This document shows positions 12,344 through 62,832 of a stretch of 64,000 nucleotides of DNA, piece by piece. Below the pieces are notes generated by a model, which did not search any database, had not been told where the DNA came from, and was given only the letters and a program-made list of their open reading frames with translations. Numbering within the stretch: position 1 is the stretch's first letter; every line of letters begins with the position of its first letter. Source of the stretch: Mizuhopecten yessoensis (lineage: Eukaryota); assembly GCF_002113885.1 (NCBI RefSeq), contig NW_018480040.1:124001-188000 (forward strand), in the 5' to 3' direction. The translations under genes were made by a program, and so were the position numbers.

Positions 12344-14605
12344 ATGTACTGGTCGTTGGCTGTCGCCGTGTGCCTGATTGGGCAGGTATGTTATTAACGT
12401 ACTCCAACAAAAATATACACAAGGTGCACTATAGATCTTTCATTTGTAACATAGGGTATCATGTTGTCCTTAGTATATTGGATGTGTGCTTTGTTTCTTA
12501 TTTGGCCTTATGTGTTGACAATATTGTTTATACTTGAACTTCGTTTAACTACCTTAATTATCTTTATATATAAAATATATTGTATTTTTTCTTAAAACAT
12601 AATCTGTTTGGATTGGTGTTTATTTCTTTCTAATACATGGAGGAATTGTTATGATTTTCAGCTTAATTCCATATACATTTCACGAGTATGGCAGATCATT
12701 AATATTTCCTGCGAGACAAAAAAACAACATAAGTGAACATTTTGGTATATTCTACTATGCAAGTAATATCTAAAACTCTAGAATGGCGGACTCGTTAGTG
12801 CAACCAAATAGTTTTGGAGATGATAGCTTAATCGTTGGCGCTATATTTTAATGATGTTACGCCTGACAAGAAATCTGCACATTTTAAAAGGTCAACTTGA
12901 AACAATAGTACATGTTTTCTTATATCAGGTGATGTTTTCTTCAAAGAATGGCATCAATAGGTTAGTTAGAAAATATATCCTAGTTGATGTAGCGATGACT
13001 TACCTAAACAGCTATTTACTTTACTGTCGCTTCACATGATGTGTTCAAAAACAGTTCTGGCATCTCAAAGGGATATTTACCACTGACAGATATCACCCTT
13101 GATATCAGTCACAGTGTGAAAGATAACGATTTCATTACGCTGATAGAGTTCAACTTATATATAATTCAATTATCGAACTTATATCTGAAAAAATATAATT
13201 GATCATTAAATGAAGATGTTGTTTGAAATAAAAAAAGAGGTGTACATTTTATACTTCCTTTTTTGTAGCCGCTATTTTTTGTATTCCTTAACTAAATAAG
13301 CACAAAATAGCAAGTAGGTGTTTGCAAATGACAGCAATAGTGATAATTGACTCTTTGAGTGATCGTATATAGTCAAATCAGATTTCATTTTCCTTCAACT
13401 GACAATTGTTTAAATAATGTTAATTGCATCATGTCTGGTTTTAAAAGACACTTGCTGTGCTGTAAAAACAGAATTCATTTGATTGATTTGTGATTTTATT
13501 TTATATACAGATATCTGGATTTACTGTATTTCAAGAAACAGCAACACCATCATTTCTAGATGAACTTACAACACAAGAACCAATGCCACCAACCACCCAG
13601 CGTGTCATCGACGCAAACGAGTTCGACCAGGCTTTGTTTTTGTATGACGCTCCGACGGTATGTACCCGTTAAGAAAAAAAGAAAAAAAATGGTTTTTCTA
13701 CAATTTCGGTCCCTGGTATCACCGATGAGGCCTAGAGGAACGGAACAGCTGTAAAGTACAGTGTAAATCATGTTTAGCATACTTTATATACATGCATTAT
13801 CAAATTTTAAAGGTCCATTGTGTGAATCTTAGGTTCATCGTTTTGATATACACTAACCTGTATACATGAATTTCTTTCTCCATAGCATCAACTGGTTATG
13901 AAGCTTGGGCATTACTGTTACATTCATGGCGTCACGTCATCGTCACAGCAATTAGTACATACAGCAGATGGACTTTTAAAATTCGAAGTAAGTAAAAGTA
14001 CAGCATATACCTTCATCAACTGACAATAGCTTTATCAAACATAGAGTGAAAATGTAATGGCCTGTGTCATTTCATTTTTGTACAAGTCCATGAATGAACA
14101 CTTGCCAGACCCATCATATTGTTTCGCTTGTAATAATATGTTCACTGTTGATCACGTGTAGTGATATTCAACAGTTATGTGACATATGTTTCAATGTACA
14201 AAATACCTATGAACTTTATGGACAAGTCCCTGTGACAACTAAATATCATTTAGTACATACAACATATAAGCCTCAATAAAATAAAATAGTGTTTACACTA
14301 CTTGTAGAATCTGTATATATGGATAAAACTTTTACCAATTGGTGTCTTTCGAATTTCTGTTTGAAGTTTAAGGCCAAAACTGACCTGCTTGTGTCGAGGG
14401 GCGGTTAAGCCTGAACAAAGAAGCTGATTGACTTTTTTATTTCCAGAGTATCTTGATGTACCTCGTAGCCGCTGGTATGCATACCCAGATGACCCATGCA
14501 GATGCTAAGAGGTTAAGCGTGCCCATTGAACACTTTTGCAGAGGACATGACATACAGGTCGTGTCAAGGATTCACCATAGCACTACCAAAAGTACAATTG
14601 TGTGA
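12344..14605 (+). CDS. Gene A: secreted BRICHOS-like protein, 149 aa; exons 12344-12385, 13511-13657, 13886-13987, 14447-14605
   Basis: All introns GT-AG, phase 0. MYWSLAVAVCLIGQ|ISGFTVFQETATPSFLDELTTQEPMPPTTQRVIDANEFDQALFLYDAPT|HQLVMKLGHYCYIHGVTSSSQQLVHTADGLLKFE|SILMYLVAAGMHTQMTHADAKRLSVPIEHFCRGHDIQVVSRIHHSTTKSTIV*. AATAAA overlaps the stop. Exon structure is shared with four paralogues. Confidence 0.9.
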
Positions 14606-21445: not shown

Positions 21446-24400
21446 ATGCAGGCCATTTTCATTGTCGCTTTCTGCGTTATCGGACAGGTGGCGTATATAT
21501 TTTATTATTTTAATAGTAGTAAACACTATTACCTAATATTAACTTTCACCTTGATATTATGTTTTAAATGTTGTTCTGTTTGTGTTTTTATTTTCTTTCA
21601 AAATTAGAATAGAAAAAGAAAAATCAACTATATTTACATTCAAAGCAGATTTGCTTGCAAGTGGCAAAGTTACGTTTATGTACTGTAATAGTAAACGATA
21701 AAATGTAAAGGTGAGATAGACAATCTTCCAGTTAAAATCATATTACACTTGGATGATAATATTTTAAAAGAAAGTAATAATAATAAACTTTATCCAAATG
21801 AAAAAAATAAATGAAAATTTAGAACTTTAGAATTGAAACGTCGTTAGCCACTTGTAAATCTTTAACACAAGATATTTGAGGCTCTTGTAAGTCTTTTAGG
21901 CAGCCGGTACAGACGAACACCCTTGATTCTGGAAGAGATCAAAATTGGTCCCATCTTGCAACGGAAGAATAAGATACATCAACTCTTTGATTGGAGAACA
22001 GCAGGGGTTATGTTATACTGTATAATTAAAATAAGTTGATATACATATCATTGATAGGGTTCATGGTCTAATGTTCTCTGTAAGGATCGTATATGTACCC
22101 TGTTATGAGCTCGAATGGTTACAGAGATCTTGACAGCGAACAACGGACCACTTACCCTAAAATGCACTTAAGACCTGTGGGTTAATTTTCTAGTTCTTCA
22201 TAGTCACATTCGCTAAAACTAAATGATGATGCGTTTACACATCGATCCCTCTTTGTTCAAATGATGAGTTTAAATGATAAAATATGTCGTCATAATTGCC
22301 GTTTACGTAGATATATAACACCTCAACGTTTGTGTCCTGTTCCTTCTCCCGTTATCATCCCGAATGTTTTTTCTTGTCATATTGTTCTTTGGCAAATCCC
22401 CGATGATAAGAAAACATGTTTTCTGAAGTAAAATAAACCGTATAAGATATTTGCACATTCTTATGTCTCTTTCTACAGATATACGCTGCACCTGCTTCTT
22501 CAAACGAGAACAACGAAATAGACGCAGCATCATTCTACTACGATGGCCTTTCAGTACGTGCTAAATAGTGATTTAGACCTAAGAACAAAACATATATACC
22601 AAGAGTACTTATATTAATATGCAATGTGTATAAGTGTATCATAAAATAAATACTATAGAAATGGATTTGAAAATTCGAAAAGCAATACATTTCTGAAATT
22701 ACTGCCAACATTGAATGTTAATATTCATTTACATATAAGTAGGTAATTATGTGTTTTATGTATATTTACTATTTCACCCTTCAGGGAAGAACAATTGTAC
22801 AGCTTGGTTTTTTTCATTATTATTTGAGTCTACTATTTATCATACGTTTATTATTATCTCTTAACTTATATATTTAGATTTGATAATATGCTTTAACACT
22901 ATTGCTGATATGTATGAAGATTACACGTATGAAAAAAATATTAAATATCCAACAATAGTTAAAAATGCTTTAAATGGTTCATTGTATGGAATCTACGACG
23001 GTAGATATGGTTTGACCGATATATCAAGGCCACACCCAGTCGGAGATTCTATACAGCGCTATTGAAAGATAAGAGGGCTATCCATTGCTCCGGTTTCCTT
23101 GTACTTAAAGACACAGTTTTGTTATGTTTGTCCTATATTGGAAGCAAACTCGACTTACAAAGTGTTTCTATACTATGCTATAAGTGCATTTGTATGAGAT
23201 ACCTATATAAAATATAAAACTAATACAAAGATCAGCTCAGCAGAGGAAGGCTTATTATACTGTTGGATTTTTTTAAAAATCTTCTAACAGATATTGTTTG
23301 TTGATGTCTACAAATGATGTATTTTAATCACAATGGTTTATAAAGGTTAATATGAATATTTTTGGAAAATATACATACGATGATAAATAACTTTTACCAA
23401 CCTTCTATCAACAAATACGCTCTATTTGTTTCGGACTTAAAAATGAGTTTCAGCTTCGTATTCGAGTAATTTTAATAGCAGTGAACACCAACACTATCTG
23501 TATTATTGTTTTTAAAAGATAACCATGTTTATCAACTTCACAAAGGTCGATTCCCCTCTGAATAGGTCAATATTTAAAAGGCGCGGGCACATATAGAGTC
23601 ATTACCAAATTATTTTATGAAAGTTTTCAGCCAATAAGTTTAAAACTTTTTTGAGAAAGTATTAAATGTCACGATAAACAATTTGCCAATACCTCTCTCC
23701 TCCCTGATTGCATATTAATCAATTGGTTCTACAGGACTTACAGTCAAAATATATTTAAAAGTCCTTCTTTACTGCCAAGACTTTTAAATTTCTAAAAGCT
23801 TAATATTAAGAGTACATCGCTAAATCATACGCAGCTTGACCAAAGTTAGTTGACCAGACATGAAAACCAATATATTATCCGAATTTTGATTCCATTTGTA
23901 TCCACTGATTTGACTCATTGAGTACCGCGTATAAAATGCCACACGAAAAGCTTAAAAAGTAAATAATTGTGAACAACGGTGTATTCATACCATAAAAAGA
24001 CATATGGATGGATATTATATACAATTTTATATAAATTGATAGAAGTATAATAAACAGAATCAACCTACTAGAAAATACTTTTCTAATCATAACTAACGTG
24101 TGTTTTGTTATAACGATTACGTAACAAACAGAAATCATTGATATTTTGAGACAGTTAGCTAGGTTATATAGCTAAATTGAATCATATACACATATTGAAA
24201 TATTTGGGTGGTTGGGTGGCGCAGTGGATATCGCTTGCCTTTCACCAAGGCGGCCGGGGTTCGATTCCCCGATCAGACGTGAAAGGTATGGTGTCACCTG
24301 CCCGACCACGTGGGTTTTATCCCGGTACTCGGCTTTCCTCCCACATTAAGACCGTTTCCAAATGTGTTATTATTTTACATGTGTCGATTTGGGAAGTTTC

Positions 24401-25260
24401 AAAACACTGAAACACCATTTCTAAGTTTCAGAAAATATAGCTTATACATGTCGGTAAAAAAATAGAAAAAATACTTAAAAAATCAAGTTTATATATTGAA
24501 ATACGAAACTGTATATATTGTTAAGCCATTTCTCAATTTATACCAACCACGATTGTAATCGCACAACGGTCGTCCATCGTCCGCACACATGTGCGCAAGG
24601 AATAATCGTCCTGATATTTATCGTTTGCACATCTTTCACACACCGTGCACACATCACGAGCATATCGCACATCGTGGAACGTTGTTCGATCCCATAACTG
24701 TAACTCGGAATAAAAAAAGGAATCGGATACCATACTGATTATAGCAATATCCATGCTATAAATCACATTGCATGTGTGATTTGTTTTGTTTTATATACAC
24801 TCAACAAGGTCTTTCTTTTTTTCTAATAGGGCTTCGTGGCACTGAAACTTGGTCATAATTGTTATCTATCGAGTCAAGAGAAGAACAGCCCAGACATTCA
24901 CACAGAGGAGGGGCTACTGGCGGCAGAGGTATGATTATTTTAAATTAAATACCTACCAAATTAAATATTGAATTTGCGTAGATATGTACTTTTCAAGCAT
25001 GGCGGAAATTCCAGTTGTTAAGCAATGTAAAAAGCAAACGAGATGACAACACAACTGTGTTGAATAAAGTGATGATAAAATAACTTTTTGTTTTTTAGTC
25101 AAGAATTATGATATTGCTGAGAAGGGGAATACAAACACCGCTGTCTCACGCTGAAGTCAACCAGTTAAGCCTACATTTAGAGCGCATGTGCGCAGGGTCA
25201 TCTGTCTACCAACTTCATCACCATCATCCTCCTTCGACAACAATGGTTTCTTTAATCTAA
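21446..25260 (+). CDS. Gene B: secreted BRICHOS-like protein, 125 aa; exons 21446-21487, 22479-22553, 24830-24928, 25099-25260
   Basis: TATAAA at 21361; phase-0 GT-AG introns. MQAIFIVAFCVIGQ|IYAAPASSNENNEIDAASFYYDGLS|GFVALKLGHNCYLSSQEKNSPDIHTEEGLLAAE|SRIMILLRRGIQTPLSHAEVNQLSLHLERMCAGSSVYQLHHHHPPSTTMVSLI*. Confidence 0.88.
24206..24353 (+). mobile_element. tRNA-derived V-SINE in intron 2 of gene B
   Basis: A-box gggtggcgcagtgg, B-box ggttcgattccc, V-domain gtgggttttatcccggtactcggctttcctcccaca. Confidence 0.8.
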
Positions 25261-27181
25261 CATGTTCACTAAAATTGTAACATAAGATTAAAATATAGCA
25301 TAAGATAGGACGTTTAGTTGTGTTTTATCGTTTTTATTCATTTGTTTTGTCAGAAATTCGAAATAAATTTCTAACGAAGAGTTATATGTTATATAGTCTT
25401 AACGCTGTAATCTGTGCAAAACAACTATTTATCTCCTAGGACGACGTCATCCAGTACGTGATGACGTCATTTGCTTTGGAATCTTCCCTGATTTTCACAA
25501 TGCCGATACTGCATCGCAGTTTGTACCACATGAACCTTAAAAGAACAGCATGCAATCCTTAACTGTTAAGCGTGGATTTAGTACTTTACTTTAATGAATC
25601 GATAATCATTTCAATAAAAGAATATTAAAATGACTTTCGCAGTGCCAAAAATATAACAGAATGGAATGGAAAACCACTTTTGACAACTTTACGTGCTTTT
25701 AAACAGACTCAAACTTGCTCCGAAGGTGGAAATGGCGGCAAACAACTGAACGCTCATTGTAGGCTGGTCTTGATGGAATTTACGACATTCTTTTCCCATG
25801 GTCTATTCGATCAGTGATCAGCTTCTATTCTTTTCGAAATGCATATAAAAAGCATACTTTCCCCACAAATTGGTAATTGCAACTTTAACGTGAAATATTG
25901 TTGTCCCTTGATACATGTTTGTATGAAATGAAATAATATTTTAAAAAATACTGTATCCTCTTTTCCATTTAAGCTTAAAGAGGATCTTTCTAACTGTTCA
26001 AAAAATGAACTTAGGTTAAACCAACTTATATAATTTTATATGTATGCATTCTTAAAAATGACGCCCGATATCTATGAGCTCTGTGTTTGTCATTGTGTAT
26101 TTACGCTGAGTGTTTCTACACCATTATCACAGCAGGAAACATAGACATTATCAAACATTTTTATCACAAATCAGATTGAAAATAAATTATAACATTTTGA
26201 ATTATTTATTTTTTGCTTGATATTACCCTATATGTTCATATTTTTAATAAAACGTCATAAAACACCAGAGGGGCACTTACATGTACGTAAATCGCGCAGG
26301 TGTGAAAACCAAGTGAAGGGGAGCTATAGAACAACACGAATGTAAATAACAAATACTGGAAACGTCCAGTTTGTGCTTTCATAACGGTCATACGGTATCA
26401 CATATCAGCTATTTGTGTCAGGCACAGGCTAGGTAAAACTCCGGTCACTTATCAAATTGTTATTTACCTGTTCTGTTACCTAGGAGCAAAACCCATTCCT
26501 GACAGTCTAACGGTCACTGTTACACTGTGTAACACGCATTTTAAAATTGTACATAATCTTAATTATTGTGATGAGAAGAAACAGTAATATATACAGTGTA
26601 TATTATTGCATACGAGCCTTCCGTATTTTTTCATTCCGTAATATTGATCAACAAATTGTACCAAATCGCACAGTTGTGCGGAGAAAAGCGCACAACGGGG
26701 CGAACAATTGTTCAATCGCACATTTGTCCGCACCATGTGTGGACGATGTGCGGACGGTGCGCGCACGGTACTTTTGGTGCGTTGTGCGGTCACACAATTG
26801 TACCATTTTTTCATATATTTTAACTTTTCTGCAGTGTTTATATTTTGCATATTTCGTTTAGGCCCGAAATTTTTCCAAGATCTAATCGACTTAAAGCATA
26901 CGTTTGGGCAGTATTTGGAATAGTTATAAGATAGGAAAATGGGTGTAAAACCAGGGGAAAACGTGATTGGAATTATTGAATGGCAAAACAACCACTTAGA
27001 TAATCCAATTATTACGGAAATCGATAAAAGAATGCGTCATTTTTAAGGTTTGGTCGTGAATAAGCCTCGTTTTGGTTTTTGTATATCTTCAATAGTCACT
27101 AGACGTAAAGATGGTATTTTCCTGTCACACTTTAAACTATTTCACTTTCTGTATAGGGATGCATTTTTGAATTTCCAATAT

Positions 27182-29089
27182 GGACAACCTCTTCCACAAT
27201 TGCAACTAACGAATGGTACCGGATATATTTATCCTGAATATATCAATAACACGTCTAACCACAAATACAATCAACATGGAAAGTACAGCTTTCCAAACAA
27301 TAACGGTACACATGGCAACCATAGTTTTCCTTATCACAACAGTACTCATGGCCACCATAGTTGCCCTCATCAACACGGTAACCATAGCAACAAGAGTTAT
27401 CCTTATCAAAACGGCACCCATCGCATTCACAGTTACGCTTATTACAACGGCGTCCAAGTGAACCATAGTTACCCTCACTACAATGGCACTTACGGCAACC
27501 ACAGTTACCTTAAACCACAACGGCACCCATGTCAACCACAGTTTCCCTCATCACAACCGCACCTTAGGCAACCACAGTTTCCCTCATCACAACGCAGTTT
27601 CCCTCATCACAACCGCACCTTAGGCAACACGGCACCCGTGACAACCACAGTTTCTCACATCACAACGGCACCCATAGCAACCATAGTTATCCTCATCAAA
27701 ACAGCACCCATGGCAACCACAGTTACCTTAAACCACAACGGCACCCATGTCAACCACAGTTTCCCTCATCACAACCGCACCTTAGGCAACCACAGTTTCC
27801 CTCATCACAACGGAAGTCGTAATACAATACTTATCCGCGATTATAAACGGCACCCGTGGCAACCACAGTTTCTCACATCACAACGGCACCCATGGCAACC
27901 ATAGTTACCCTAAACCACAACGGCACCCATGGCAACCACAGTTTTTCACATCACAACGGCACCCATGCTAGCCACAGTTGTCTTCATCACAACGGTACTT
28001 ATGGCAACCACAGCTATTCCAACGCTAACGAATCACGCATCCTCTATGATGAATCAACCTTTCTTTATGACAGGTGGACGGTTGGTGATAATCTAACCAT
28101 CTATAGTATTCAATGTTACGTCATTCTTATTTAAGGCGTTGTTTTTAATAGCATTCAGATAATAATAATATACGGAACAATAAAGCCACTCGTGTATTAA
28201 TCATGAAATACTTTATCAATTTTTGTTTTTGCAACATTCCTTATACATAGTTCATCCGTCATTTTTTCTGTATACATCATACAATCCCTGAAATGGGTTG
28301 TGATAATGCAAATACTGCGGTACCTCAAATTTGATTTCATAATGGTTTTCTTTACGTCTATCAATTTATCTCAATGTATAAAATCATAAATATTGTGTTT
28401 TGATATCTAATGAAGATAGCAACATATTTTTTTGAATAAACAAGCCTTTTAAGTATATATAAATATGTTTTGCAACAGTGTAATGTTTGCAATTGTTGCT
28501 AAAAGATATAGATGATAGTGGTTCCTGCAACGACAGAATGTCATCAATCGGCATACATTTTAGTATACCGAAGGCCATAAAAAGAAGAATGACGTGTAAA
28601 CGAAATGATTTTATTTCACAGCACACTATGGCCATGCATCTCGGCAATATTTACTATATCATGATATTGACACCTCACCAGTAGAGCATGTTCCTCACGA
28701 ACAATAGCCTAACATCGTTAGATGTATGTCCATATTTTTTCTATTCTAAGACATTTCTGAAAGCAGCAGATATGACTATGTTTTCCGTGTGTCTGACCAT
28801 ACTTCAGTCTTATATTTAGTCAATGTAGGTAACCTTTCTTTTATTTTGCAAGGGCGATTGAGTTTCTCTTCCTCTTTCCCGTCACTGTATATCAGAATTT
28901 TAGGTAATAAATTTGAATCCAGTTGGTGATATATGTACATGCAAAATAACATCTTATTTTTAGCTGCAACTGATGAAGATGTTGAGTACGGGACATAACT
29001 CCGCTATAGAGTTCTAGACTGTACTCTTCCCCGGAGACAAGTTCGCTCCCATTTGTCATGGAACAAACTGTGTATTGCGCGCCAACTAA
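27182..29089 (+). pseudogene. C': pseudogene copy of gene C (exon remnants 27182-28080, 28622-28723, 28964-29089)
   Basis: Exon 1 and TATA deleted; exon-2 acceptor changed aatag>aatat; frameshifts in the expanded repeat; conserved Cys changed to Tyr (NIYYI vs NSCYI); premature TAG at 28682 and 29015. Confidence 0.9.
27290..28020 (+). repeat. 36-bp coding-derived minisatellite (cacaacggcacccatggcaaccacagtttccctcat = HNGTHGNHSFPH), about 20 units
   Basis: Tandem units read directly; only about 5 units in intact gene C (39185-39370). Confidence 0.9.
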
Positions 29090-30881: not shown

Positions 30882-31300
30882 AAGTCGGAAAATCAATAGC
30901 GTATTTGTGTCCCGTACTCAACTTCTTCATCAGTTGTAGCTAATAAATAAATGAAAATACGATGTTGTAATGCATGTAGCACAATCAGGATTCAAATTAC
31001 TTACTTAGAATTCTGAATACATTAAGGGGAAAGAAGGAAAAAATCTCAATCGCCCATGTCAAATTAAAGATAATTATATACATGCATTGACTAATCCATT
31101 AAATTAATATAAGAACTTAAATGTTTTCTAACACACAGAAAACAAAATCATATTTGCTGCTTTTAGAAATATATAAGAGTGAATAAATATGGACATACCT
31201 CTAACGATGTTAGGCCATTATTCGTGTTGAGCATGCTCTGTTGGTAAGGTGTCAATATCATAAGATAACAGGAATTGCCGAGATACAATGCCATAGTATG
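30882..31300 (-). pseudogene. Orphan copy of gene C exon 3 (31300-31199) and partial exon 4 (30939-30882) within the tandem unit
   Basis: HTMALYLGNSCYLMILTPYQQSMLNTNNGLTSLE; exons 1-2 are cut off by the ATCATGA junction. Confidence 0.75.
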
Positions 31301-34439: not shown

Positions 34440-36810
34440 TACTTAATTTCATTTGGATATAACTGTTGCATATTTGAGCCTGGTTACTTCCGTTGTCCAG
34501 CTGGTACACGTAGCTCAAGCGGTTAGAGCGATAGTATTACAATGTGGAATCCAACGTTTCGAATCCCGTTCTAGTCTTGCTATATCATTTTTACACTAAG
34601 AATACTGTTGTTGATGATAATTTATATTTTTTCCCATTTTCAAGATATTTATTAAAGCTACAGTTATGTTGGTAAAAACCGTTTCCAATCTGTAGTTTTG
34701 TTTCTAGTACGAGGATCCTTAATTATGCAAATTCACCACTTCACGCCTACAAGTCATGTCAAAACACTGTGAGCAAATAACAGACACCAAGCAAACATAT
34801 AATTGCAAATGTATTTTGTCAAGAGCAAAAATAGTGTAATATGAACATGAACTGGTGAAAGAGGCACGTGCTGACCGCGTTGTGCTTATTTACTGTTACG
34901 ACGGTTTCACGTCATATTACAAAAATAACTTCAAATTAAAAAACAAACAAATTAATACATTTTTGACCAATGGCATCACACACTATTTTAATAGATGACA
35001 CATAGTAAATCTGACAGAACCAAACAGCATTCCATATATGTACGGATACGCTGGGATATCGCCTATTGTTTACTTTGAGGACCGTTTAACTATCTATTAA
35101 TAAAACTAAAGATATTCATAATATAGTAAGTTTCATTAATATATACTGATTTTCTTGATATCAATATGTTGATCTGTTTTATAATTAAAAGCGAATTGGT
35201 GTAACCATCAAATGAACTAGTGATATCAAAACAAATTTAATGATGTCTTTAGTCTGATTTTGTGTGTTATTATAAAATTGAGTATCAAATTTCGTTAGAT
35301 CAGACTATTTTACTTACAAATTTTCATGAAGTCAATCCGTTTTAGATGGATAACAGAGACCTGATTATCGGGCTACAGTAAGCAGAAAACAAAAAATCGT
35401 ATCAAATAATATGGTTATACTACGGAAGCTTATTCGTTCCATCTTTGGAAGGAAAAATAAAACGACGAACGAAATGAAAGTCACACGCACGAGGTAAAAC
35501 AAAGTATACAAATGAAATAAAAAGTCGTACAAATGAGATACAAAGTTGTACGCACGAGGTAAAAATCGTACGATCGAAATAGAATTCTGACGAACGAGAC
35601 AAAAAATCGTATAAACAAAAGAAAAAAGTCGCAAATCGAGGTAAAAGTCGAATGACTTTTGACTAATTCCGACGAAGATTGATAAAATCATAGGAAGTTT
35701 CTTAAAGTTAACGATGTCAGAATGTCAGTCGATTGTTTTGACTGCTGGCTTGTAAACTTCCCTACGCTGACAACGGCGCTTACATGTAACAGGTTACAAG
35801 ATTGATATTTTTTTTTTACTTTTGCCTTACAATTTCTGTCTGATTGACAGCGGGGCTCAACAGCCACGGTTTAAAGAATCAATGAGGCGAGGCAACAGCC
35901 AAAACTAAATTAAAGAATTCACCCCTGTATTTGTACCACCCAAGTGGACTTAATATTACCACTCGTAATCATAATAGCCTCTGTTATAAATAGGATGTTT
36001 CTGTCTATATAGGGCAATGTAAGAACTGTATTGACTTCAGGTAAAAAGTGTGTTACATGTAGTTCGTCCTATTTAACAAACTGTGACCCCTCCCGTTTAC
36101 TTATGTAAATTATATGTAAATATTGCGAAATAGAGATAGAACGAACAGTTAGAATCGTCAACACATCTCTGGGTTTATTTTAACCAGTACCTTTAAATTG
36201 AATAGGTGATTTAAATGTATATAAGAAAACAACGCACACTTATGTTTAATGAATCAAGAACTGATGTTTTCTAATGTTAAAGATAGAAAATTAGCAAACA
36301 CTTATTGGACTAATTAACCTCTTTCTTAAATATTCGGGATAAGATTCATCAGTTTGCTATGATGTATGATAAAAACATGTTAAGTTAGTTTTTAGCACAA
36401 ACAGAAATTGAAAACTGATTTTGCGAGCTTTTGCTGCACTTTTCGCTTAATAAAGAAACAGACCGAGTTTCCAATATGTCTTATTTTTAAAGTTTTTATT
36501 GTGCTTTACGTCATATTAACACCTATCGAAATTTAAGGACGAGATAGGTTTCAATGATGGAGGGGAGCCGGAGTACCCGGACGAAAACCGTCGACCAGCG
36601 GAATGTACCTGGTGACTGCCCAAGGTTGACATCGAAGCTGCGACCCAATAGTGGAAATCTAGCGAACGCCTTAACCACTCGGCAACCGCGGCCCTAACGT
36701 CGATTTAACTACACACACGACCCTATTTGCCGATACATCTTCGTAACAAGGTTACAATAGTTAAAAGGTGTAAGTGAATAAACCAAATTTTATGAGGGAT
36801 TTATATTTGA
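34440..36810. repeat. Palindrome spacer built from copies of the 4-8.6 kb region
   Basis: 34440-36463 is an inverted copy of 3986-5897 (includes tRNA-like copy 3 at 34503-34575); 36485-36810 is a direct copy of 7105-7440 (SINE plus flank). Confidence 0.85.
36485..36694 (-). mobile_element. tRNA-derived SINE, same family and flank as 7105-7332
   Basis: Head gggccgcggttgccgagtggttaaggcg; core ggttttcgtccgggtactccggctcc. Confidence 0.75.
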
Positions 36811-37490: not shown

Positions 37491-38123
37491 CATTAAATAC
37501 ATAAGCAGTCAAGAAAGTGTTTTTGTACGTGTTTAATTGAATCTTTCATTCTCCGAAGAAATCACAATGTAGTGAGCACCCCCTGAATATAAAAGAATAA
37601 AAACGGAAATTAGGGTATTACTTTATAAAAATGGTTATTTTGTATAATTAGTCATATGAAAATCAAATAATGTCACGTTTGTCCTTGTTTAAATTAAACA
37701 TATTTATATCGCGAATTCAGAATGTTTCCAGTGCAGTGGTCAATTTCTTAAACACATCATACGTTAAATTCCAAGCGATACCACAAATGGAAAATCTTTT
37801 TACATATACTGTTCATTCTAGACACAACCTCATTATTCGCCTTAGTTTCAGCATACAAAATGGTTGAATGTTAGGACGACAAAGTGTTTACTACAATATA
37901 TATTTTTTTACGTCTTGTTATATTTCTTGTATTTCTATGAAGTCGTAATACAATACTTATCCGCGATTATAAATGTGTTTATATTTTTATTCTATGGCAA
38001 AGGTTTTTAACTCATAGTGGGTAAGGGGAGACAACACGGATAGACACCTTAATGGTAAACTATTTAGATTAAACACCCCGACATAAAGACGTAACGAATG
38101 AGCTCATCCCAAAGAGTTACCGT

Positions 38124-40152
38124 TCAGCTAGCGCGCAGTAGGTAGTTGGTTCCATGGCATAAGGGAGCAAACTTATCTCCGAGGGAGAGTAAAGTCGGAA
38201 AATCAATAGCGTATTTGTGTCCCGTACTCAACTTCTTCATCAGTTGTAGCTAATAAATAAATGAAAATACGATGTTGTAATGCATGTAGCACAATCAGGA
38301 TTCAAATTACTTACTTAGAATTCTGAATACATTAAGGGGATAGAAGGAAAAATCTCAATCGCCCATGTCAAATTTAAGATAATTATATACATGCATTGAC
38401 TAATCCATTAAATTAATATAAGAACTTAAATGTTATCTAACACACAGAAAACAAAATCATATTTGCTGCTTTTAGAAATATATAAGAGTGAATAAATATG
38501 GACATACCTCTAACGATGTTAGGCCATTGTTCGTGTTGAGCATGCTCTGTTGGTAAGGTGTCAATATCATAATATAACAGGAATTGCCGAGATGCAATGC
38601 CATAGTATGCTGTAAAATGAAATTAATTCGTTATCGCTTCATTCTTCATACACACATGCCAATCTTATAAAATAATTATCTCGATTTTTCAGCAAGAAAA
38701 GGAAACATTAAACTTTTACAAACACACATTTTATGTTTGAAATGTATATTGCTATCTTCGAACGTTAGATATCAAACGATATGTACAATATTTATCATTT
38801 TTCATTTAATTGCTGTGATAAATTGCTAGACGTAAAAGAAACCATCATGAAAACGAATTTCGAGGTACCGTTTATTTGCATTATTACAACCAATTTAAGA
38901 AATGGTATGATGCGTGCAGATTCATGCGTAATAAAATCTATAAACTAGCAATATTGTAATGAGAAGTAAAGATGATAAAGTATTTCATAATTAATAAATG
39001 AAAGGTTTTTTTTTTGTTCTGCATGTACATATTTATTTAATGCTTTTTAGAAAACTACGTTTAAATTATCAGAATTCGAATGACGTAACAAACAATCTTA
39101 CAAATACTTATTATCACCTACCGTCCACCTGTCGTAAAGAAAAGTTGACCCATCATACACGATGCGAGATCCGTTTGCGTTAGGATAGCTGTGATTGCCA
39201 TAGGTACCGTTGTGGTAAGGGAAACTGTGGTTGCCATGGGTGCCGTTGTGATGAGGGTAACTGTGGTTGCCATGGGTGCCGTTGTGGTTAGAGAAACTGT
39301 GATTACCATGGGTGCCGTTGTGATGAGGATAATTGTGGTTACCATGAGTACCATTATGGTTTGGAAAGCTGTAATTTCCATGTTGATTATGGTTGTGGTT
39401 AGACGTGTAATTGACATATTCGGGATAGATATATCCGGTACCATTCTTAAGTTGCCATTGTGGAAGAGATTGTCCCTATTCGAAAAAATGTTAATTACAA
39501 ATAAAATGAAACAGTAAAACGTGTGACAGCGAGTTACCACCTTTACTTTAAGTGACTATTGCAGATAAGGGAAGTCAAATCGAGGCTAATTGACGACCAA
39601 ACATGATAAGGATAAGTACACAATATGGTGCGTCCTTTTATCGATATCCGTAACTTTCAAATCGTAAGTTAATGTAGGATATTTACGTCCATAATTACCA
39701 CTTCTGTCATTTTGATTGATTTAACGCTCAAACTGTACAAAAATACCATTTTGACTTTGTGTTCCATCATGCTCATGTAGTGCCAAAATAAATCCTTAAA
39801 TCGTGCAAATGGTTTGCTTCAGGAACACTCATGAACTAATAAAAGCAAACATTAGTGTTAACTTCTTTGAAGTATGAATGAAAACACTCCTACAAGACAT
39901 TTGTGTATACCATTCAGAAAACTTATCACTTTTAAGAAATTGCTACACGGCCAGGTTCGCCTTTTGTAAGACAACATGTAGACAACTCCTCCGAGCGGCT
40001 AATTGTGTTTATCTGACTCTATTTATCAAAGAAATCACATTATTGATGAACAATAGAATGCTCACGAATTATTATCTATGTGTATGTTTAAGTTTGCTTA
40101 CCAATGCCACGACAAGCAAGAACACTGCAGCAATCAAGTAAATGTTGTTCAT
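38124..40152 (-). CDS. Gene C: secreted His/Asn-repeat BRICHOS-like glycoprotein, 210 aa; exons 40152-40102, 39475-39122, 38609-38508, 38249-38124
   Basis: TATAAAAG at 40198-40191; phase-0 GT-AG introns. MNNIYLIAAVFLLVVAL|GQSLPQWQLKNGTGYIYPEYVNYTSNHNHNQHGNYSFPN(HNGTHGNHxx(P/S)x)x5...NGSRIVYDGSTFLYDRWT|HTMALHLGNSCYIMILTPYQQSMLNTNNGLTSLE|LQLMKKLSTGHKYAIDFPTLLSLGDKFAPLCHGTNYLLRAS*. Confidence 0.88.
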
Positions 40153-40436
40153 GTTGTAGTCGACTGGTCATGTCAACCTTACTGATAAGCCTTTTATACT
40201 TGGTGTTTTACCCCCATTTTCTTATCTTATAACAAGTCCAAATACTCTCCCAAACATATACTTTATGTCGGTTAGATCTTGGATATATTCAGGGCCTTAA
40301 CGAAATATACAAAATATTAACCCTGCAGCAAATTTATGAAAAAATGGTAGCTAGAAATACAAATTAATGGCGTAACTATTTGAAAACGTTGTAAGACTAA
40401 GCAGAAAACAGACGGAAAAGAAATAAGATGTAGGTC

Positions 40437-41771
40437 ATTAGTAAGGCTTTTGACCGTGTTTGGCACCGTGGTCTCTTAACCAAACAACGGAGTTTTGGAA
40501 CTACTGGGAAATTGTTGTCATGATTTTCAAACTATCTTTCGGATCGTAATCAGCGAGTTGTCATCAATAATAAGTATTCGTCTTGGCAAAAAGACAATGC
40601 AGGCGTCCCACAAGGCTCTATATTAGGACCACTACTATTTCTAATTTTTATTAATGATATAGCCGACAAGATTCAATCAATTATTAATTTATTTGCCGAC
40701 GATACATTTGTATGCTACAGTTGATTTACCCACAGATAGTGCTGCTGTCTTGAATAGGGACTTGGGGAAAATATTTAATTGGTCCAAAAAAAAAAGAAAC
40801 TTTGATTTTGATTGTTAGTAAAAAAGCAAACAAATCAGTCCATCCTCCTATGACAATGAATGAGAATCTAGTACACGAAGTGAATGCACATAAACACTTG
40901 GGTGTATTTTTCTCATGTGATGGTGGGTGACAATGCCATATTGAATATATTGTTAAAAAGGCATCTGCTAAACCGATATCAGAGTATGGAGATATTGTTT
41001 GGGACAATCTGACCAACCTACATTTACAAAAGATAGAAAATATACAACTTGAAACTGCACAGGAGGCACCAAGCTCACTAGTCATGCAAACCTTTACAAA
41101 GAAACAGGATGGCAAACACTTGCTTGTAGGCGGAAACACCACAAAATCACACAATATCACAAAAAAGTACACAACATTACCCCACAATATCTTAGAAACA
41201 TTCTCCCAGAACGACATTCGCACATCCACCAACATAACACTAGAGACGCAAATTGATCTAGACCTGTACGTTGCAGAACAAACTTATATAAAAAATCTTT
41301 CCTAACTGCTTCTGTCAATCTATGGAACGTTTCTTACCTATTAAATTCATACAATAATTGTTCACTCATAAAAACCTCGGTTTTGTGTATAAGGGTGTGC
41401 GAGGGGGTGTGGTTGTGCGCGCGCCTGGGTTTTTCCCCATTTCAGTTGTGCCATATGCTATTGGTATTTTCGTAGCATCTTTGTAGTAGTACACAGCATA
41501 CATTTTTCCACTGTTATAAATCCGTTATGCCATCAGTGACATTTACATAGGTTAACGTTTGTACAATGGCAAATGCTATTCTTTCTTCTCTTCCTATTTC
41601 TTCTCCTCTTTCTTCTACTTCAAAGTCTCTATTATCCATTATCATTTCTGCTAAGGAAACAGATTGATATAAGTTTAATAACTTGTTTCCGGATCCTATT
41701 TCATGTATGTAATAATTAAATGTTCTGTATATTGTAATTGCAAATTTACGAAATAAAATATGGTTTATACT
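40437..41771 (+). mobile_element. 5'-truncated, degenerate CR1-group LINE (RT fragment and 3' UTR)
   Basis: ISKAFDRVWHRGLL, GVPQGSILGPLLFLIFIND, LFADDT, HKHLGV with stops and frameshifts; 3' end aataaaatatggtttatac; right arm only. Confidence 0.85.
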
Positions 41772-42634: not shown

Positions 42635-42763
42635 CTGTCCGATAACGCAAAAAGCGACAATGACAATGCCCTGCATGCTTGATGTCCTATCAATGGAAGA
42701 GTTGTCAAAAATGCTGTTAAAATGAAATCCACGGACTAAACTTACTAAGCTTACGTCTATATA
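42635..42763 (-). pseudogene. B': truncated pseudogene of gene B (TATA and exon 1 only, 42676-42635)
   Basis: MQGIVIVAFCVIGQ with the donor changed GT>AT (cagATgtcg); left-arm 22332-26800, containing exons 2-4, is absent here. Confidence 0.88.
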
Positions 42764-43695
42764 TTATTCGGTGAAAAGACTAGGAGGCACTGTGAAGGGA
42801 TATTTTACGAAACACAAAATTAATTCACATCGGGAAGAGCGACTGGTCCGACGAAAGTATGTTTGCTGTCTTCCAATTATATGTAATTGAAATAGAAAGT
42901 TATTGTAACTCACATGATGCATTGTTCCCTTGCAGGTTAACCAATGACAACAAAACATAATCTTTATAATTTGCCAATGATCATTTGACGTGTTAACACT
43001 ACTCTGTCTTTCTATACGCCAAACCTGCTGTCTATTCTACCCACAATCATTTACCTGAGCCCAACGAAAAAGTCCATCAACATTTCTTTTTACGATGGAG
43101 CTTTCTGTACGTGATAATTGGTAATTTTGACTTTTACTATAACAAACAAATGTAATAATAGTATAATAGTAAGTATGGATAAATATGATATATTTTTATA
43201 CATATTAATCCAAATCTGTAGATTATATATTCTTTATTATGAAAATATAAATATTGATAAGATTTAATTACTAGTATATTTAAAAGATTATTTATCATTC
43301 TTATTTTTCAACAAATTTTTCAAAATTATTATTGATATTTTGATTTCTTTGTAAGAATTGCTCATATGCATCCATTGGTACATGTTTTAAAAATATAGTG
43401 TATAAAACAAATAATGCAACCAAATGTGTTACTGTATGGTGGCTTGATTTTTACGTTGCACATGTTTTTATTGTAACATAGTTCAAAACTGGATCCCCAC
43501 TTAACTTTTCAAAATCATAAGTCGACATCATAAATGGAATAAACAAAATACGTTAAATAGATTTTTCGATTTTTTGTCTTTAGTAAAAAAAAATTAAAAA
43601 AATTGGAAAGAATCGTTTTAAGATATGTAACATTGCAGTTTTTATATTACATCAAAATATCAAGTTAAAAAGGTACCAAAACTGTGTTATCCATA

Positions 43696-44675
43696 TGTTC
43701 GTGTTGTCTGACAGATATCAGTATCTGGATGAACGCCAACATGCTTAAACTTAATCAGGAAAAGACGGAACTAATCGTCTTTTCCCCAAAGTGTCAGCAA
43801 ACAATGGCTCTCCAGCTCAAGGTTGGTGCCAGAATTATTGAGACTGTTCCAGCTGTTAAAAACCTAGGGGTATACTTTGACAGTTCTCTGAACATGGAGA
43901 AACAAGTGAACGCTATTGCCAAATCCTGTTACTACCAGATCAGGAACATCGGCTGTATTCGGCAGTTTCTAACTGCAGATGCATGCAAGATTTTGGTGCA
44001 TTCACTTGTTACCTCTCGGTTGGATTATGGTAACGCCCTGCTCTGTGGTATATCTGACAAACTAACTAGTCGTCTGCAGAGGGTTCAGAACACTGCAGCA
44101 CGGCTAGTTACTCGTACTCGAAAGAGAGAGCACATCACACCTGCGCTTTATTCGTTGCACTGGTTACCTGTACGATACAGGTCGCAGTACAAAATTCTGG
44201 TATACACATACAAGGCACTGAATGGAACAGCTCCTCAGTACCTACAGGAACTTGTTACCCTGTATCAGCCGTCAAGATCACTGCGGTCGGAGTCAGAATC
44301 TTTGTTGTGTGTCCCAAAATCTCGTACTGTGACCTACGGAAACAGATGCTTTGGGAGGGTTTCGGCTACGTTGTGGAATAGCTTACCATCTGCTATTAGG
44401 AAGTCGAATACCCTGGCCAAGTTCAAGAGGGACAAAAAAAGTCACCTCTTCACGTCTGCATTTTAGAATCTTTGCAAAGTCGTCATGTAAATACCACCCT
44501 TTTATTTGTTCAATTATGTGCACATTGCTTGTTAAATGTATGAAAGTGATTGCAAGCCTTTGTTGTTTGTTTTCACAATTATAACCATTACTATATGTTG
44601 TAAAGCGCCTTAGAGTAATTTTACAAATTATATAGGGCGATATATAAATGCTGTATATTATTATTATTATTTATT
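43696..44675 (+). mobile_element. 5'-truncated L2-clade LINE, ORF2 C-terminus intact to stop 44466, with (TAT)n tail
   Basis: LKLNQEKTE, VKNLGVYFDSSL, LVTSRLDYGNALL, LQRVQNTAARLV, LHWLPV, LWNSLP; 3' gtaaagcgcc...atataaat...tattattat; the empty site is seen on the left arm at ~20460-20480. Confidence 0.92.
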
Positions 44676-49925: not shown

Positions 49926-52482
49926 TCACACAATTGTACTTTTGGTAGTGCTATGATGAATCCTTTTCAAGACAAGTATGTCATGTCCTGCGCAAAAGTG
50001 TTCAACATCCCTACTTAATGTCTTAGCATCTTCATGGGTCATTTGGGTATGCATGCCAGCGGCTACGAGGTACATCAAGATACTCTGAAAATAAAAAGTC
50101 AGTCAGTTTCTTTTTTCAGGCTTTACCGCCCCTCAACACAAGAATGTCAGTTTTGGCCTTCAACTTCAAACAGAAATTCAAATGACACCAATTGGTAAAT
50201 GTTGTATCAATAGATATATATATTCTACAAGTAGTGTAAACAGTATTTTATATTATAGAGGCTTATATTTTGTATGAACCTAATGATATCTAGTTGTCAC
50301 AGGGACTTGTCCAAAAAGTTCATAGAAATTTTGTACATTGAAACATATGTCACATAACTGTTGAAGATCACTTCCACGTGATCATAATATGGTTAACAGT
50401 GAACATAGTATTACAAGCGAAACAATATGGTGGGTCTGGCAAATGTTCATTTATGGACTTGTACATGACACAGGCCATTACATTTTCACTCTATGTTTGA
50501 TAAAGCTATTGTCAGTTGATGAAGGTATATGCTGTACTTCTACTTACTTCGAATTTTATAAGTCCATCTGCAGTATGTATTAATGGCTGTTGCGATGACG
50601 TGACGCCATGGAGGTAACAGTAATGCCCAAGCTTCATAGCCAGTTGATGCTATGGAAAAAGAAATTCATGTATACAGGTTAGTGTATATCAAAACGATGA
50701 ACCTAAAATTCACACATTGGACTGCTCCTGTACAATTTGATAATGCATGTAGATAAAGTATGCTAAAAACGAATAACACTGTACTTCACAGCTGTTCCGT
50801 CCTTCTAGGACTCACCGGTGATACTAGGGACCGAAATTATAGAAAAACCATTTTTTTTTTTTTTTTAAATGTATCATTTTTTTTTTAAATTTTCTTAACG
50901 GGTACATACCGTCGGAGCGTCATAAAAAAACAAAGCCTGGTCGAACTCGTTTGCATCGTTGACATTATGATGACGAATGGTGGTTGATGGCATTGGTTCT
51001 TGTGTTGTTAGCAGATCTAGAAATGATGGTGTTACTGTTTCTTGCAATACAGTAAATCCAGATATCTGTAAAAAAAAAACACACACACACAAATTACACA
51101 AAAGAATGATTTATTTACCGCACACCAAGTGCTCCCTTTATAAAGGTTGTGGTAATATTCTGGGAGCATATCATATGCAACCACTGTCTCAGCCAAATTT
51201 CATAAGTATTATAAAGTTCTTACTGTATATTGCACGAATAAATAAGTATTTTTTCATTATACACGCATTTAACCAATTAAACCCTAACACAAATCAAGTA
51301 ATACGATAAATATATGTGTCAGATCAGTAAAAATTAAAGCAGGCTTGATTATATAGAAATGGGTCAAGTATTCATAAAAATATCATGGTTGATGTTATTT
51401 GCAAAGACCATTCTATTCATTTTTGTTTACAAAAGAACTTTAACATAACTAGTTTTATTTAATTAGTAAAGAAATTAAAAATGAATATAGGTATTTAAAA
51501 CCCGCGAAAGGTAAGTCATTCAACACTATCTAAACACCTCTTTTTAACCAAAACCAATAAACTATAAAAAAACAAATACTGTTTCATTATCAAAAATAAT
51601 AATTACACATTTAAGGATAAACGTTCGATGATTGATGTTTTTATCCTAGTCATTAGAAAAAATCATCGTAATAAAACCGATATCTTTCTCACTGCTCAAT
51701 ATTCGTTTTTTGGTTTACGCCAATCAAAACTTCTAATCCCCACTGCATCAGAAGCACAGGGTTTTTGAAACACATGTAGGTGAGGCGACTGAGAAATTAT
51801 TAGTTCTGTATGTACGTCTTTGCTTTAAACACCAGTATATTTTTTCTTACTCTAATATTGATCATTTTGCAAAAAAGATTTCACCATATTTTAGAAGAAA
51901 ATTGTATGACTGTTTGTATATAGTAGACTATTTGAAATAGTGAGCAATCTTGTTGTCAGACGTGATCGCATTCTATGAATATAGCGCCAAAGATAAGCTA
52001 TTACTGTATATCTCAAACTGTCTAGATTCACTAAGGAGGTTGTCGTTCTAGAGAGTTTAAAAGATCACGTGTATAGTAGGGTATACCAAAATGTTCACTC
52101 ATGCGATGTACCCACTGGAAATATTGGTAATCTACCATACTCATGAAATGCATATAGTATTAAGCTGATAATAAACAAAATTCCTCTATGTAATAAATAG
52201 AAATAAACACTAAATCCAATAAGATCATATTTAAAACAAAAAACAATACAACTTATTTTAAAAGGTAATTAAGTTTGTTAAACAAAGTTTTAAAATACCA
52301 CGGTGTTAACACATATGGCCCAATTTGAAACAAGCACACATCCAATATACTAAGGACAACATGAGCCCCTATATTACAAATGAAAGATGTAAAGTGCACC
52401 TTGTGTATATTTTCATCGGAGTGCGTTAATAACATACCTGCCCAATCAGGCACACGGCGATAGCTAACGACCAGTTCATCAT
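49926..52482 (-). CDS. Gene A': secreted BRICHOS-like protein, 152-153 aa, inverted duplicate of A; exons 52482-52438, 51065-50910, 50649-50548, 50084-49926
   Basis: (M)MNWSLAIAVCLIGQ|ISGFTVLQETVTPSFLDLLTTQEPMPSTTIRHHNVNDANEFDQALFFYDAPT|HQLAMKLGHYCYLHGVTSSQQPLIHTADGLIKFE|SILMYLVAAGMHTQMTHEDAKTLSRDVEHFCAGHDILVLKRIHHSTTKSTIV*; splice sites intact; AATAAA at the stop. Confidence 0.9.
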
Positions 52483-59364: not shown

Positions 59365-62300
59365 TCAACCAATTGGCATCATTGTTGTAGTGTGATGGTG
59401 ATGAGGTCTTGACACGACGAACACGTCCTGACTTGCGCACATGTGTTCAACGTGGATGCTTAACTTTAAAACATCGTCATGGGACATCTGTGTATGGTTA
59501 CCCTTGGCTACGAGAACCATCAAATCATTCTAAAAATAGAAAAAGCAATTACATATTTTATCACATAACTGACCCATGTTACTATGTCATACGGCCATGT
59601 CATAAATATGGTATTACACACGTGTAATAAAACCTAGGTGCTGCAAATGGACGAAACCTTAAGAACATATTCCTTCGCCACTACAGGTATTTAACTGCAG
59701 CTTTTTTGCGGACAAATTTTAATGGTTTTGCTGTGAAATGAATTAAAAATGTTTATTTTCTCATTATTATATTCATTGCATTTCAAACTGTTCATTATTT
59801 AAAAAAAAATCCGGAACTACTTTGCGTTGCGCGAAACGACAATACTATGATCGGAGTACTTTGGTTTTGAGTCAGTTAATTTATCTTTTTTCAAATTATG
59901 AAAGTAATGTGATAAATAGGATCCTACATTCGTGTCCTTATCATATTGAATTTATTAAATCGTTCAATAATTTGATTTGACACTCGCCTGAAGTCTCGTG
60001 TCATATCAAATTATTGAACTCGTTTAACAAATTCAATATGACATGGTAGCTCATGGAAGATTTCTCTATAAATCAATTAATCACATTGTTTTCAAATGTA
60101 TGAACTGAGGCTGTTGATTACTTTCTTCCTTTTTGATTGATACATCAATTGTCTGTTGATGATGGTTGTAAAAAACTTTACTTACCTCGAGTTTTAAAAT
60201 CCCGTCTGTTGTGTGTACCTGTGGTCGTGTGGACATCTTTAGCTTCTCAATGTAGCAGGTATCTCCTCGCTTCATTACCATTTGATGCTGCGGGAAAATT
60301 CACACACATATATATATATAAAGTAGTGCAATAAAGGAATTCAAGATTAAAATATCAATGTCCCATAAATAACGGAATTGACTCCTTAAAGCAGTTCTAA
60401 TAAAATAATATTCAAAAATATACAGATACGTGAATAACATCGATTCGAAACATGGCATGTTATTAACTCAATATGGTAGATAAGCAGTTCAAAAAGGTTT
60501 AATTCCGCAGTAAATCCATATTAAAATTCAAAACTAAGACTACATTAGTCCTATAAATATCATGAAAAGCGCAATTTAATACCTTGATTGGAACTATGTC
60601 TTCGGGATTCATGTGTAATCTAATTTGTATTCAATAACAAAGGAGAAAATGAGACATTTGCTTGGATGCTCAAAAAGTTTGAGTGAAAATTTAAATTTAG
60701 ATTTTCTTTACGTTTTTCGGCCATGATTAGCACCACAATTGGAACACCATATCACAGACTATGAAACTGATTTTATTTCAACTAGTTGATGTGCCGATTG
60801 CAACAAAATATATTGCTTTTATAAATACCATACGGAACTACAATTGCATAGTCCCGGGTAAGAATGGGGTGTAAGACATTTCTATCATACACCTCAGTTC
60901 ACGTGACGTGACATCACAATGGCTCAACAATGACGTGACCTCACGAATTTGGAACTCTCCGATACCACAATGCGGAAAAACTCTGTTTGATAATAAGCGG
61001 TATGCTACATTGATGTAAATCTGGCTGACATATTCGTTTTCGTCAAAAAGATCTCATGAGAAACATTTATATTTTCAAAATGGTAGCCAGTCCACACGCA
61101 TTTTCATGGTTTCTAAGCTTATTGTGGTAGTTGGAATGAGAGAAAAATACTAATTCATGCCCAAGGGTGTAGGATAGGGAATTCCTACCCTCGGAATTTC
61201 CAAGGCAAAACTATCCGAATTTGAAAACCCCTCGGGTGGAATTTCCCTATCCTACACCCCTGGGCATGAAAGAGTCTTATAATACTTTTCGCCTATAAGG
61301 ACCAGAAATCATCATTTAAACATGCTTACAATTCACCCCTTTAAAATACTCCAAAATTTTCATCGACATACGTCGTTTTTCCTTGTTTTCTGATATGTTT
61401 ACTTTGATTTCTAAAACTGTTCATGAAAACAAAACTTTCTGTGGAAATGCTGACAAGTATATCCTTTGGTATACTTTCATAGGAACATATCTTTAAGTAC
61501 TATATTCGAACCATTTTCTGACCGTGTACCAATTTGGGCAGCATACCTATAGTGGTAGCGCGACGTTACATTCGTAACTGATGTCGGTTCATCAACAGTT
61601 TGTGTAACCTCGATATTTTGTTCTAAATATATCGTTTACTTATAAATGTTCCCTAACAGGTACATACCGACAGAGCGTCATAGTAGAACAAAGCTTGGTC
61701 AAACTCGTTAGATTCGTGAGGACGATGAGGATGGTGAGTAGATGGAGGTATTGTGGTCATACAACATATCTGTAAAACAAAATCACATATTCCACAAATA
61801 AATGCCTTCTATAAGACAATGACAGCCATCCCTAAATCCGAAACGAGATTATTTTTCTCGTCAGCTTAATCAAACAGATTATCATATATCGGTATTTCAG
61901 TAAAACTTGAGCTGTAAAATGGCGATAACATACATAGTATTGATAAGTCAGTATTTGTTTTCTATGTTTACACATACCCCTCCGCATTAAAGCCATTTTG
62001 GTCTCTGTGGGGTATAACATGTAGATAGATAGATAAAATTGTAATGAGTTAAAGTAAAGGATACAACACTGCATAAGATATAATGGCGAAGTAGATTCCG
62101 CACATATTTTTTTCTACTTAGAGTAATCTCCCTTTTACATAGATTATGAAGCAATCAAAAGGATTGCTTATTGTTTATTTCGCAGGGTTTGGCGTCCATA
62201 ATTTGGACAGACATCTTGATGTTCGATACATTTGTATGTATATTCCTGAATGGCTCCATTGTTAAAGAGTAGTCTTTGTAATGAAGAGGTTCTTAGATTG

Positions 62301-62832
62301 ACTCCTGAATTTTTTTTTGTTTTTAATATAATCAAAATTTTGAACAAATATAATTCTGTAAAATGCATTCTAACATGTCATTTTTATGAAAGAATTCTTT
62401 GGAAACAGCTTCAACAAACATCTAACAACAGTGCGATAAAGCTATCTGGTTATGGTATAGCTTAACTTGCTGGTCAGTGAGAGATATTATATTTATATAA
62501 CAATCTTGGTACGTCCATGGGTTAAATGTTTGATATCTGACAAGGAGAGAGATAGTATATCAAACTACCACAGTGATTACCTTCAGGAACAAAATTCTAT
62601 TATTCTATTAGGACAAATAAAGTGTCAACAAATATCTTAAATATGGAAACCAAGTAAACACCAAAACAAGATGGAGGACAGCAAGAACATCTACAACACC
62701 AATAAAAAAGCCGACGCCAGATATTCCAAAAGAATACATTCACCCTGCAACACATGCAATTTCAGTCCAATGTCTTTAAAAGCAACTTACCTGTCCAATC
62801 AGACACACGACGACAGCCAAAGCACAGTACAT
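59365..62832 (-). CDS. Gene D: secreted BRICHOS-like protein, 136 aa; exons 62832-62791, 61769-61668, 60287-60186, 59529-59365
   Basis: TATATAA 62907-62901. MYCALAVVVCLIGQ|ICCMTTIPPSTHHPHRPHESNEFDQALFYYDALS|HQMVMKRGDTCYIEKLKMSTRPQVHTTDGILKLE|NDLMVLVAKGNHTQMSHDDVLKLSIHVEHMCASQDVFVVSRPHHHHTTTMMPIG*; AATAAA at 59360-59355. Confidence 0.9.
59916..60070. mobile_element. Hairpin non-autonomous element (Crypton-N-like) in gene D intron 3
   Basis: tcatattgaatttattaaa...ctcgcctgaagtctcg apex...tttaacaaattcaatatga. Confidence 0.55.
61154..61283. mobile_element. Hairpin non-autonomous element (Crypton-N-like) in gene D intron 2
   Basis: ttcatgcccaagggtgtaggatagggaattcc ... ggaatttccctatcctacacccctgggcatgaa. 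Confidence 0.6.

Follow-up and report, generated by a model that had tools for sequence, protein, structure and literature searches.

The locus examined here is a window of 64,000 nucleotides from Mizuhopecten yessoensis (contig NW_018480040.1, positions 124,001 to 188,000), in which one gene, gene C, seemed to place a His-rich repeat crowded with N-glycosylation sequons in front of a BRICHOS-like domain. Research on BRICHOS domains treats them as chaperones against amyloid formation, and in nearly every case the cargo lies C-terminal to the domain. The locus raises the question of whether the repeat is really translated, whether the domain belongs to the BRICHOS fold, and whether the repeat is the client of its own domain or something else.

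Gene structure, splicing and coding frame

Gene C was confirmed as a minus-strand gene with four coding exons encoding 210 aa, and all of its introns are in phase 0 with GT-AG ends. The mature protein has a calculated mass of about 22 kDa. The features are as follows.

40192..40198, minus strand: TATA-like box, 40 nt upstream of the gene C ATG (sequence; putative function)
40102..40152, minus strand: exon 1, Met and hydrophobic leader, 17 aa, a probable signal peptide (sequence, inspection)
39122..39475, minus strand: exon 2, 118 aa, His/Asn arm and first domain strands, ending just past the conserved Asp132 (sequence, RNA contigs, model)
38508..38609, minus strand: exon 3, 34 aa, two strands with Cys146 and the start of the long helix (sequence, RNA contigs, model)
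38121..38249, minus strand: exon 4, remainder of the domain, including Cys200 and the last strand; coding part 38249-38124, 41 aa plus the stop codon at 38126-38124 (sequence, RNA contigs, model)
37583..38120, minus strand: 3'-UTR intron, GT..AG (loose contig end of run X2 mapped to 37554-37581)
37554..37582, minus strand: 5' part of non-coding exon 5, 3' limit not fixed (X2 contig)

Of the 24 listed runs, four were compared with the locus, and two of these, X19 and X24, yielded no reads. Contigs from each of the runs X1 and X2, which belong to two studies, join all four exons at the predicted junctions. Missing from them are the first intron and the stretches 38610-39121 and 38250-38507, each bounded by CT..AC when read on the plus strand. 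We regard these contigs as derived from mRNA because they are spliced, the runs themselves being only guessed to be RNA. Both match exon 2 with no mismatches and no gaps. The 3'-UTR intron is spliced out in the main X2 contig and retained in the X1 contig and in a minor X2 contig. Both spliced contigs stop at 40131, exactly 30 nt into exon 1, so that support for the ATG comes from the sequence and from the NCBI model; their shared end suggests either that the graph branches where exon 1 ends, through a different splice partner or allele, or that position 40132 is variant.

Our model is identical, letter for letter, to XP_021341994.1 of M. yessoensis, the single protein returned by a search with exon 4. 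NCBI names this protein 'homeobox protein 2-like'; a Pfam search found no homeodomain in it, and the name was probably drawn from its Asn-rich composition.

A Thr-rich open reading frame overlaps exon 2 at 39118-39555, and the first-pass annotation had dismissed it as the wrong frame. When the repeat units were compared with each other, the His/Asn frame gave a pN/pS of 0.12 (11 synonymous and 6 replacement changes; p = 3.6e-5), whereas four of the other five frames gave 1.6-6.7, the Thr-rich frame among them with 1.76. The remaining one, at 0.30, is the antisense frame in codon-mirrored register, and it is interrupted by stops. Thus, the pN/pS values and the spliced contigs bear out that exon 2 is read in the His/Asn frame and not in the Thr-rich one, and the X1 and X2 contigs showed neither another frame nor skipping of exon 2.

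The predicted BRICHOS domain and the sequon-dense arm

Membership of the gene C domain in the BRICHOS fold is well supported by sequence comparison and structure prediction, although the domain lies below the Pfam cut-off. PF04089 did not match the gene C protein (P0001) at E <= 10; it matched four of the 11 members of alignment A2 below the cut-off (best E 0.007), and all three Solemya homologues passed the gathering cut-off on the two-domain sum. The gene C protein was connected to P0002 of Solemya velum by phmmer (E 2.1e-10), and alignment A2 to alignment A3 by hhalign (96.7%, E 3.8e-10, 88 columns), a homology link that is transitive and in which A2 includes gene C itself.

The predicted fold consists of an antiparallel sheet, two helices and a last strand, as in BRICHOS domains. 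Cys146 lies on predicted strand 145-150, and Cys200 terminates predicted helix 196-200; both are invariant in 11 of 11 rows and would link strand 4 to helix 2 by a predicted bond, as the BRICHOS Cys pair does. Asp132 closes predicted strand 127-132, where BRICHOS domains have an Asp at the end of strand 2, and falls at about position 104-105 of 2yad, as judged from the range offset and not from a residue-level alignment; in proSP-C, the BRICHOS domain's conserved Asp is D105 (PMC9627735). Among 18 domain rows, the position is Asp in 16 and Glu in 2. The leader, with hydrophobic residues 4-17 by inspection and a helix at 3-18 in the model, has the character of a signal peptide or anchor and supports the extracellular location proposed earlier. 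C-terminal cargo was not found: only 10 residues follow Cys200, with no convertase site, whereas all human BRICHOS members except proSP-C have such a site and a mature, beta-prone C-terminal peptide (PMC9714404). Neither dibasic (KR, RR) nor R-x-x-R sites occur anywhere in the gene C protein. The homology links and the predicted fold thus uphold a BRICHOS-like domain next to the repeat.

39167..39445, minus strand: sequon-bearing arm, residues 28-120, 13 N-x-S/T sites (sequence; predicted disordered)
39179..39358, minus strand: five 36-nt (12-aa) units, residues 57-116 (TRF and sequence)

Direct counting and TRF (copy number 5.4) confirmed the earlier description of about five units and 13 sequons, as the 118 aa of exon 2 include 13 N-x-S/T sequons along with 21 Asn and 19 His. 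In 20,000 shuffles of exon 2, the mean was 3.15 sequons and the maximum 10, against 13 observed. Because the repeat multiplies a few events, the unit and the non-repeat part were tested separately: the probability of two sequons in a shuffled circular 12-mer unit was 0.015, and the non-repeat part has four sequons where a mean of 1.1 was expected (p = 0.01). The estimate of nearly two sequons per 12 aa was also right, since four of the five units have two and one has a single sequon (9 per 60 aa). Within the repeat (residues 57-116), ionisable side chains come only from its 16 His, K/R/D/E being absent, and the positions of these His are conserved from unit to unit, with variation at positions 9-12. 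GHGXY-type motifs are absent from the units and from the arm. In the predicted structure the arm is disordered, strandless and of low confidence, and so is the Argopecten arm in its own model. Repeat-number polymorphism, which had been suggested as a check, was not seen in the two samples with coverage. Judging from the sequence, N-glycosylation of the arm at the predicted sites and metal binding by its His residues are both plausible.

The gene family and its locus

The window holds five intact genes with the layout of gene C (A, C, D, E and F) and a broken one (B). The family sits inside an old inverted duplication, in which about 4-30 kb is paired with 55-34 kb at 68-92% identity.

27158..29089, plus strand: copy B, broken inverted sister of C (sequence)
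12344..14605, plus strand: paralogue A, four-exon layout like C, Thr/Pro/acidic arm (sequence-only model)
21446..25260, plus strand: paralogue F, short arm, His/Thr tail (sequence-only model)
49926..52479, minus strand: paralogue D, inverted duplicate of A (sequence-only model)
59365..62832, minus strand: paralogue E, LOC110442637 (P0043), weak Pfam BRICHOS match (sequence)

In copy B the repeat is longer, at more than 15 units, and carries frameshifts; exons 3 and 4 contain stops, the first Cys is lost, and the TATA box and exon 1 are absent. The divergence of B from C (dS 0.55, dN 0.12) suggests that it was functional for a long time. In its repeat, at 27810-27846, one unit is replaced by about 35 nt matching 37939-37975, a plus-strand match just downstream of the gene C stop and in the sense opposite to the gene.

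All paralogues have leaders of 13-17 aa. The arms of A, D and F are His-poor, and these genes have His/Thr tails instead. Short C-terminal tails with a His run followed by a Thr run come after the domain in A, D, E, F, P0006, P0019, P0041 and P0044; gene C has no such tail.

Relatives were located in Argopecten, Pecten, Ylistrum, Dreissena and Solemya, and the ESM Atlas contains unnamed mollusc clusters of 62, 96 and 118 members (TM 0.78-0.82). Arm composition was compared in 10 single-domain database proteins, two of which are isoforms or near-copies. In all 10, the arm contains 18-31% His regardless of its length; Thr makes up 14-29% of the nine arms outside gene C, which have 0-3 sequons each, against 7% Thr and 13 sequons in C. 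These compositions indicate that a variable, low-complexity exon 2 arm is a trait of the family, and that the N-sequon ladder is peculiar to gene C. In the tree, C fell outside the short-arm scallop group (85/96) but was not placed more exactly, and database searches found no annotated orthologue with the 12-aa repeat. In Solemya velum, P0002, P0040 and P0042 are secreted-type proteins that each consist of a tandem pair of minimal BRICHOS domains, with neither arm nor cargo, and at least three such paralogues lie on one contig.

Further observations were made along the window. In the stretch 28658-32878, pieces of 98-100% identity form a patchwork, with 28658-29232 present three times and 29234-30883 twice, which includes pieces of the gene C locus in inverted sense (30882-31541 = 38192-38850; 29234-29546 = 38538-38850) and reflects either template switching or misassembly. 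An orphan copy of paralogue F exon 1, with no good donor, lies at 42635-42676 on the minus strand; the rest of the duplicate was not found. Decayed LINE-like remnants occupy 40400-41350, with a reverse transcriptase match (RVT_1, E 4e-9) at 40524-40721, and 43669-44466, where a 265-aa open reading frame at 43669 with no significant Pfam match presumably resembles the C-terminus of LINE ORF2. At 1-585 (minus strand), a 195-aa open frame with a signal-peptide-like start, six sequons and no significant Pfam match leaves the window. We also noted a strongly A-skewed tandem array of about 20 copies of a 31-nt unit (2212-3077) and three related segments of 0.5-1 kb in mixed orientation (4879-8636 and 34434-35497; 82% identity), to which no gene was assigned.

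Role of the arm and comparison with known systems

The reading that we favour, with a probability of roughly 0.45, is that the 210-aa product of gene C is secreted and joins a predicted minimal BRICHOS domain to a predicted-disordered, N-glycosylated His/Asn arm, which acts as a pH- and metal-switched tether and not as cleaved amyloid cargo. It builds on the gene structure, splicing, frame, composition and selection on the unit, together with the predicted fold; the steps beyond these are inferred from squid beak and Nereis proteins (PMC9999432) and from BRICHOS biochemistry. After signal-peptide cleavage, many of the 13 sequons would be N-glycosylated in the ER. In acidic secretory granules the 16 His would be charged and keep the arm soluble; in seawater they would lose their charge and bind Zn/Cu or stack with Tyr/Phe, and the uncharged or metal-bound arm could then anchor the protein in mucus or a matrix gel. 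The glycans would hold water around the arm and make cross-beta stacking harder, and the BRICHOS domain, having no C-terminal cargo, may bind beta-prone secreted partners in trans.

It is also possible, though unlikely, that the arm is the domain's own client in the manner of proSP-C, that is, a former of beta-sheets or coacervates triggered by pH or Zn and restrained by the BRICHOS domain until it is secreted to build a structural material. The gene C domain resembles that of proSP-C most, and the client of proSP-C is N-terminal (PMC9714404). Relatives in Dreissena and Argopecten have His/Thr arms of the suckerin-peptide and NVJP-1 kind; according to PMC9999432, NVJP-1 (His/Gly/Tyr-rich, from the Nereis jaw) is beta-rich at seawater pH and gives amyloid-like fibrils with Zn, and a His/Thr-containing suckerin peptide forms cross-beta fibres. 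By analogy, a beta-prone arm is conceivable. However, residues 57-116 contain no V/I/L and 23% Pro+Gly, with a mean Chou-Fasman beta propensity of 0.92 and a sequon every 5-7 residues; the protein has no convertase site, both modelled arms are strandless, and arms of 12-16 residues suffice in four of the eight relatives measured. Two single-chain models showed no sign of the arm docking on face A of the domain, and AlphaFold likewise misses the docking of proSP-C's own client (PMC9714404). Of the first interpretation, then, the frame, splicing, BRICHOS-like domain and extracellular location stood, and the beta-prone client in cis found little support. An N-terminal client had been called unusual, which is true of human BRICHOS proteins, but N-terminal His-rich arms are common in the bivalve family; gene C stands out by how densely its sequons are packed.

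Somewhat less probable is a role as soluble carrier or scavenger of metals, whether in plasma, in extrapallial fluid or in the gut, like that of mussel HRG/EP, with glycans serving solubility and half-life. The 19 His of the arm are consistent with it, and in the plasma of Mytilus heavy metals are transported by His-rich glycoproteins (PMC6530089). Such a role would leave the BRICHOS domain without a function, no sequence link to HRG/EP was found, and gene C is not among the Cd-binding scallop proteins listed in PMC12357810. We give about the same small weight to a purely mucin-like, hydrated spacer, an N-glycan brush replacing the Thr/O-glycan arm of the relatives, with inherited His and no switch. 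Arm length and make-up do vary freely across the family while the domain is kept, and sequons are enriched outside the repeat as well, but the preserved His positions within the variable units and the His share, which stays at 18-31% in the 10 database proteins whatever their arm length, argue against it. An uncleaved leader, making a type II membrane protein with a glycosylated stalk like BRI2 or proSP-C, is very improbable: several BRICHOS proteins use a signal anchor (PMC9714404) and the leader is a helix in the model, but paralogue leaders are equally short, and the hydrophobic stretch of about 14 residues starts at residue 4. It also ends in small residues. Such an end is typical of a cleavage site.

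The tethered-arm reading, as a proposal on function, overturns no known biology. The gene C domain is proSP-C-like and lacks cargo; it belongs to a bivalve expansion that apparently has not been described, and it sits behind an unusually sequon-dense His arm. The locus displays a radiation of minimal domains with interchangeable low-complexity arms that standard annotation misses, gene C having been filed as a homeobox protein. We found no paper on gene C or its family in the open-access literature, and neither appears in the supplements of PMC12357810, PMC9641012 and PMC6281612; the unassigned 'group I/II' BRICHOS families of PMC9627735 might include some molluscan members. These proteins offer natural material for asking whether BRICHOS acts in trans once secreted and whether N-glycan density can tune His-switched assembly, and the gene C protein is small and easy to express, which makes the question directly testable. 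A more far-reaching proposal, which we consider doubtful, is that a large class of minimal proSP-C-like BRICHOS proteins, so far undescribed, exists in bivalves and chaperones its own N-terminal His-rich arms as pH- or metal-triggered assembly modules for mucus, adhesive or matrix gels; the domain Asp and arm His would switch in one pH window, and the N-glycan ladder would tune assembly in C.

Among known systems, the best structural match to the predicted domain is the proSP-C BRICHOS domain (PDB 2yad, 8ox2), with gene C residues 118-209 on 90-197 and 15-20% identity. In both, a minimal domain with the strand-end Asp and two Cys is C-terminal, with nothing after it. The client of proSP-C is the N-terminal mature surfactant peptide, a poly-Val membrane helix, whereas gene C has a polar His/Asn arm. 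proSP-C is the sole human BRICHOS protein that has an N-terminal client and lacks extra strands (PMC9714404). BRI2, gastrokines, OAF and the polychaete arenicin and nicomicin precursors share the leader, BRICHOS domain and secretory route with gene C, but they carry a convertase site as well as a mature peptide at the C-terminus, of which gene C has neither. Marine invertebrate BRICHOS proteins include polychaete antimicrobial precursors with a C-terminal peptide (PMC9756803 and PMC6265681), and an unnamed 'BRICHOS domain-containing protein' is up-regulated in a mussel gut transcriptome (PMC4203926).

Mytilus HRG/HIP/EP is, like gene C, bivalve, extracellular and His-rich; it is a glycosylated, metal-binding major plasma protein of 63 kDa with no Pfam or sequence link to gene C, and we take it to belong to another, C1q-type family. 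Squid beak HBPs, Nereis NVJP-1, suckerin M1 and the mussel preCol ends resemble the arm in their His/Gly/aromatic repeats with His as the only charge, and they are switched by pH or metal (PMC9999432). The likeness is compositional: HBP/NVJP-1-type proteins have the GHGXY motif that the arm lacks, and the passages on these His-rich structural proteins in that source describe neither a BRICHOS domain nor dense N-glycosylation. The bivalve BRICHOS-like proteins share with C the domain (21-32% identity over 85-88 columns), the leader and usually a His-rich arm or tail, the four-exon layout being common to the window genes. Their arms are His/Thr-rich with few sequons, whereas gene C combines its 13 sequons with a regular 12-aa repeat.
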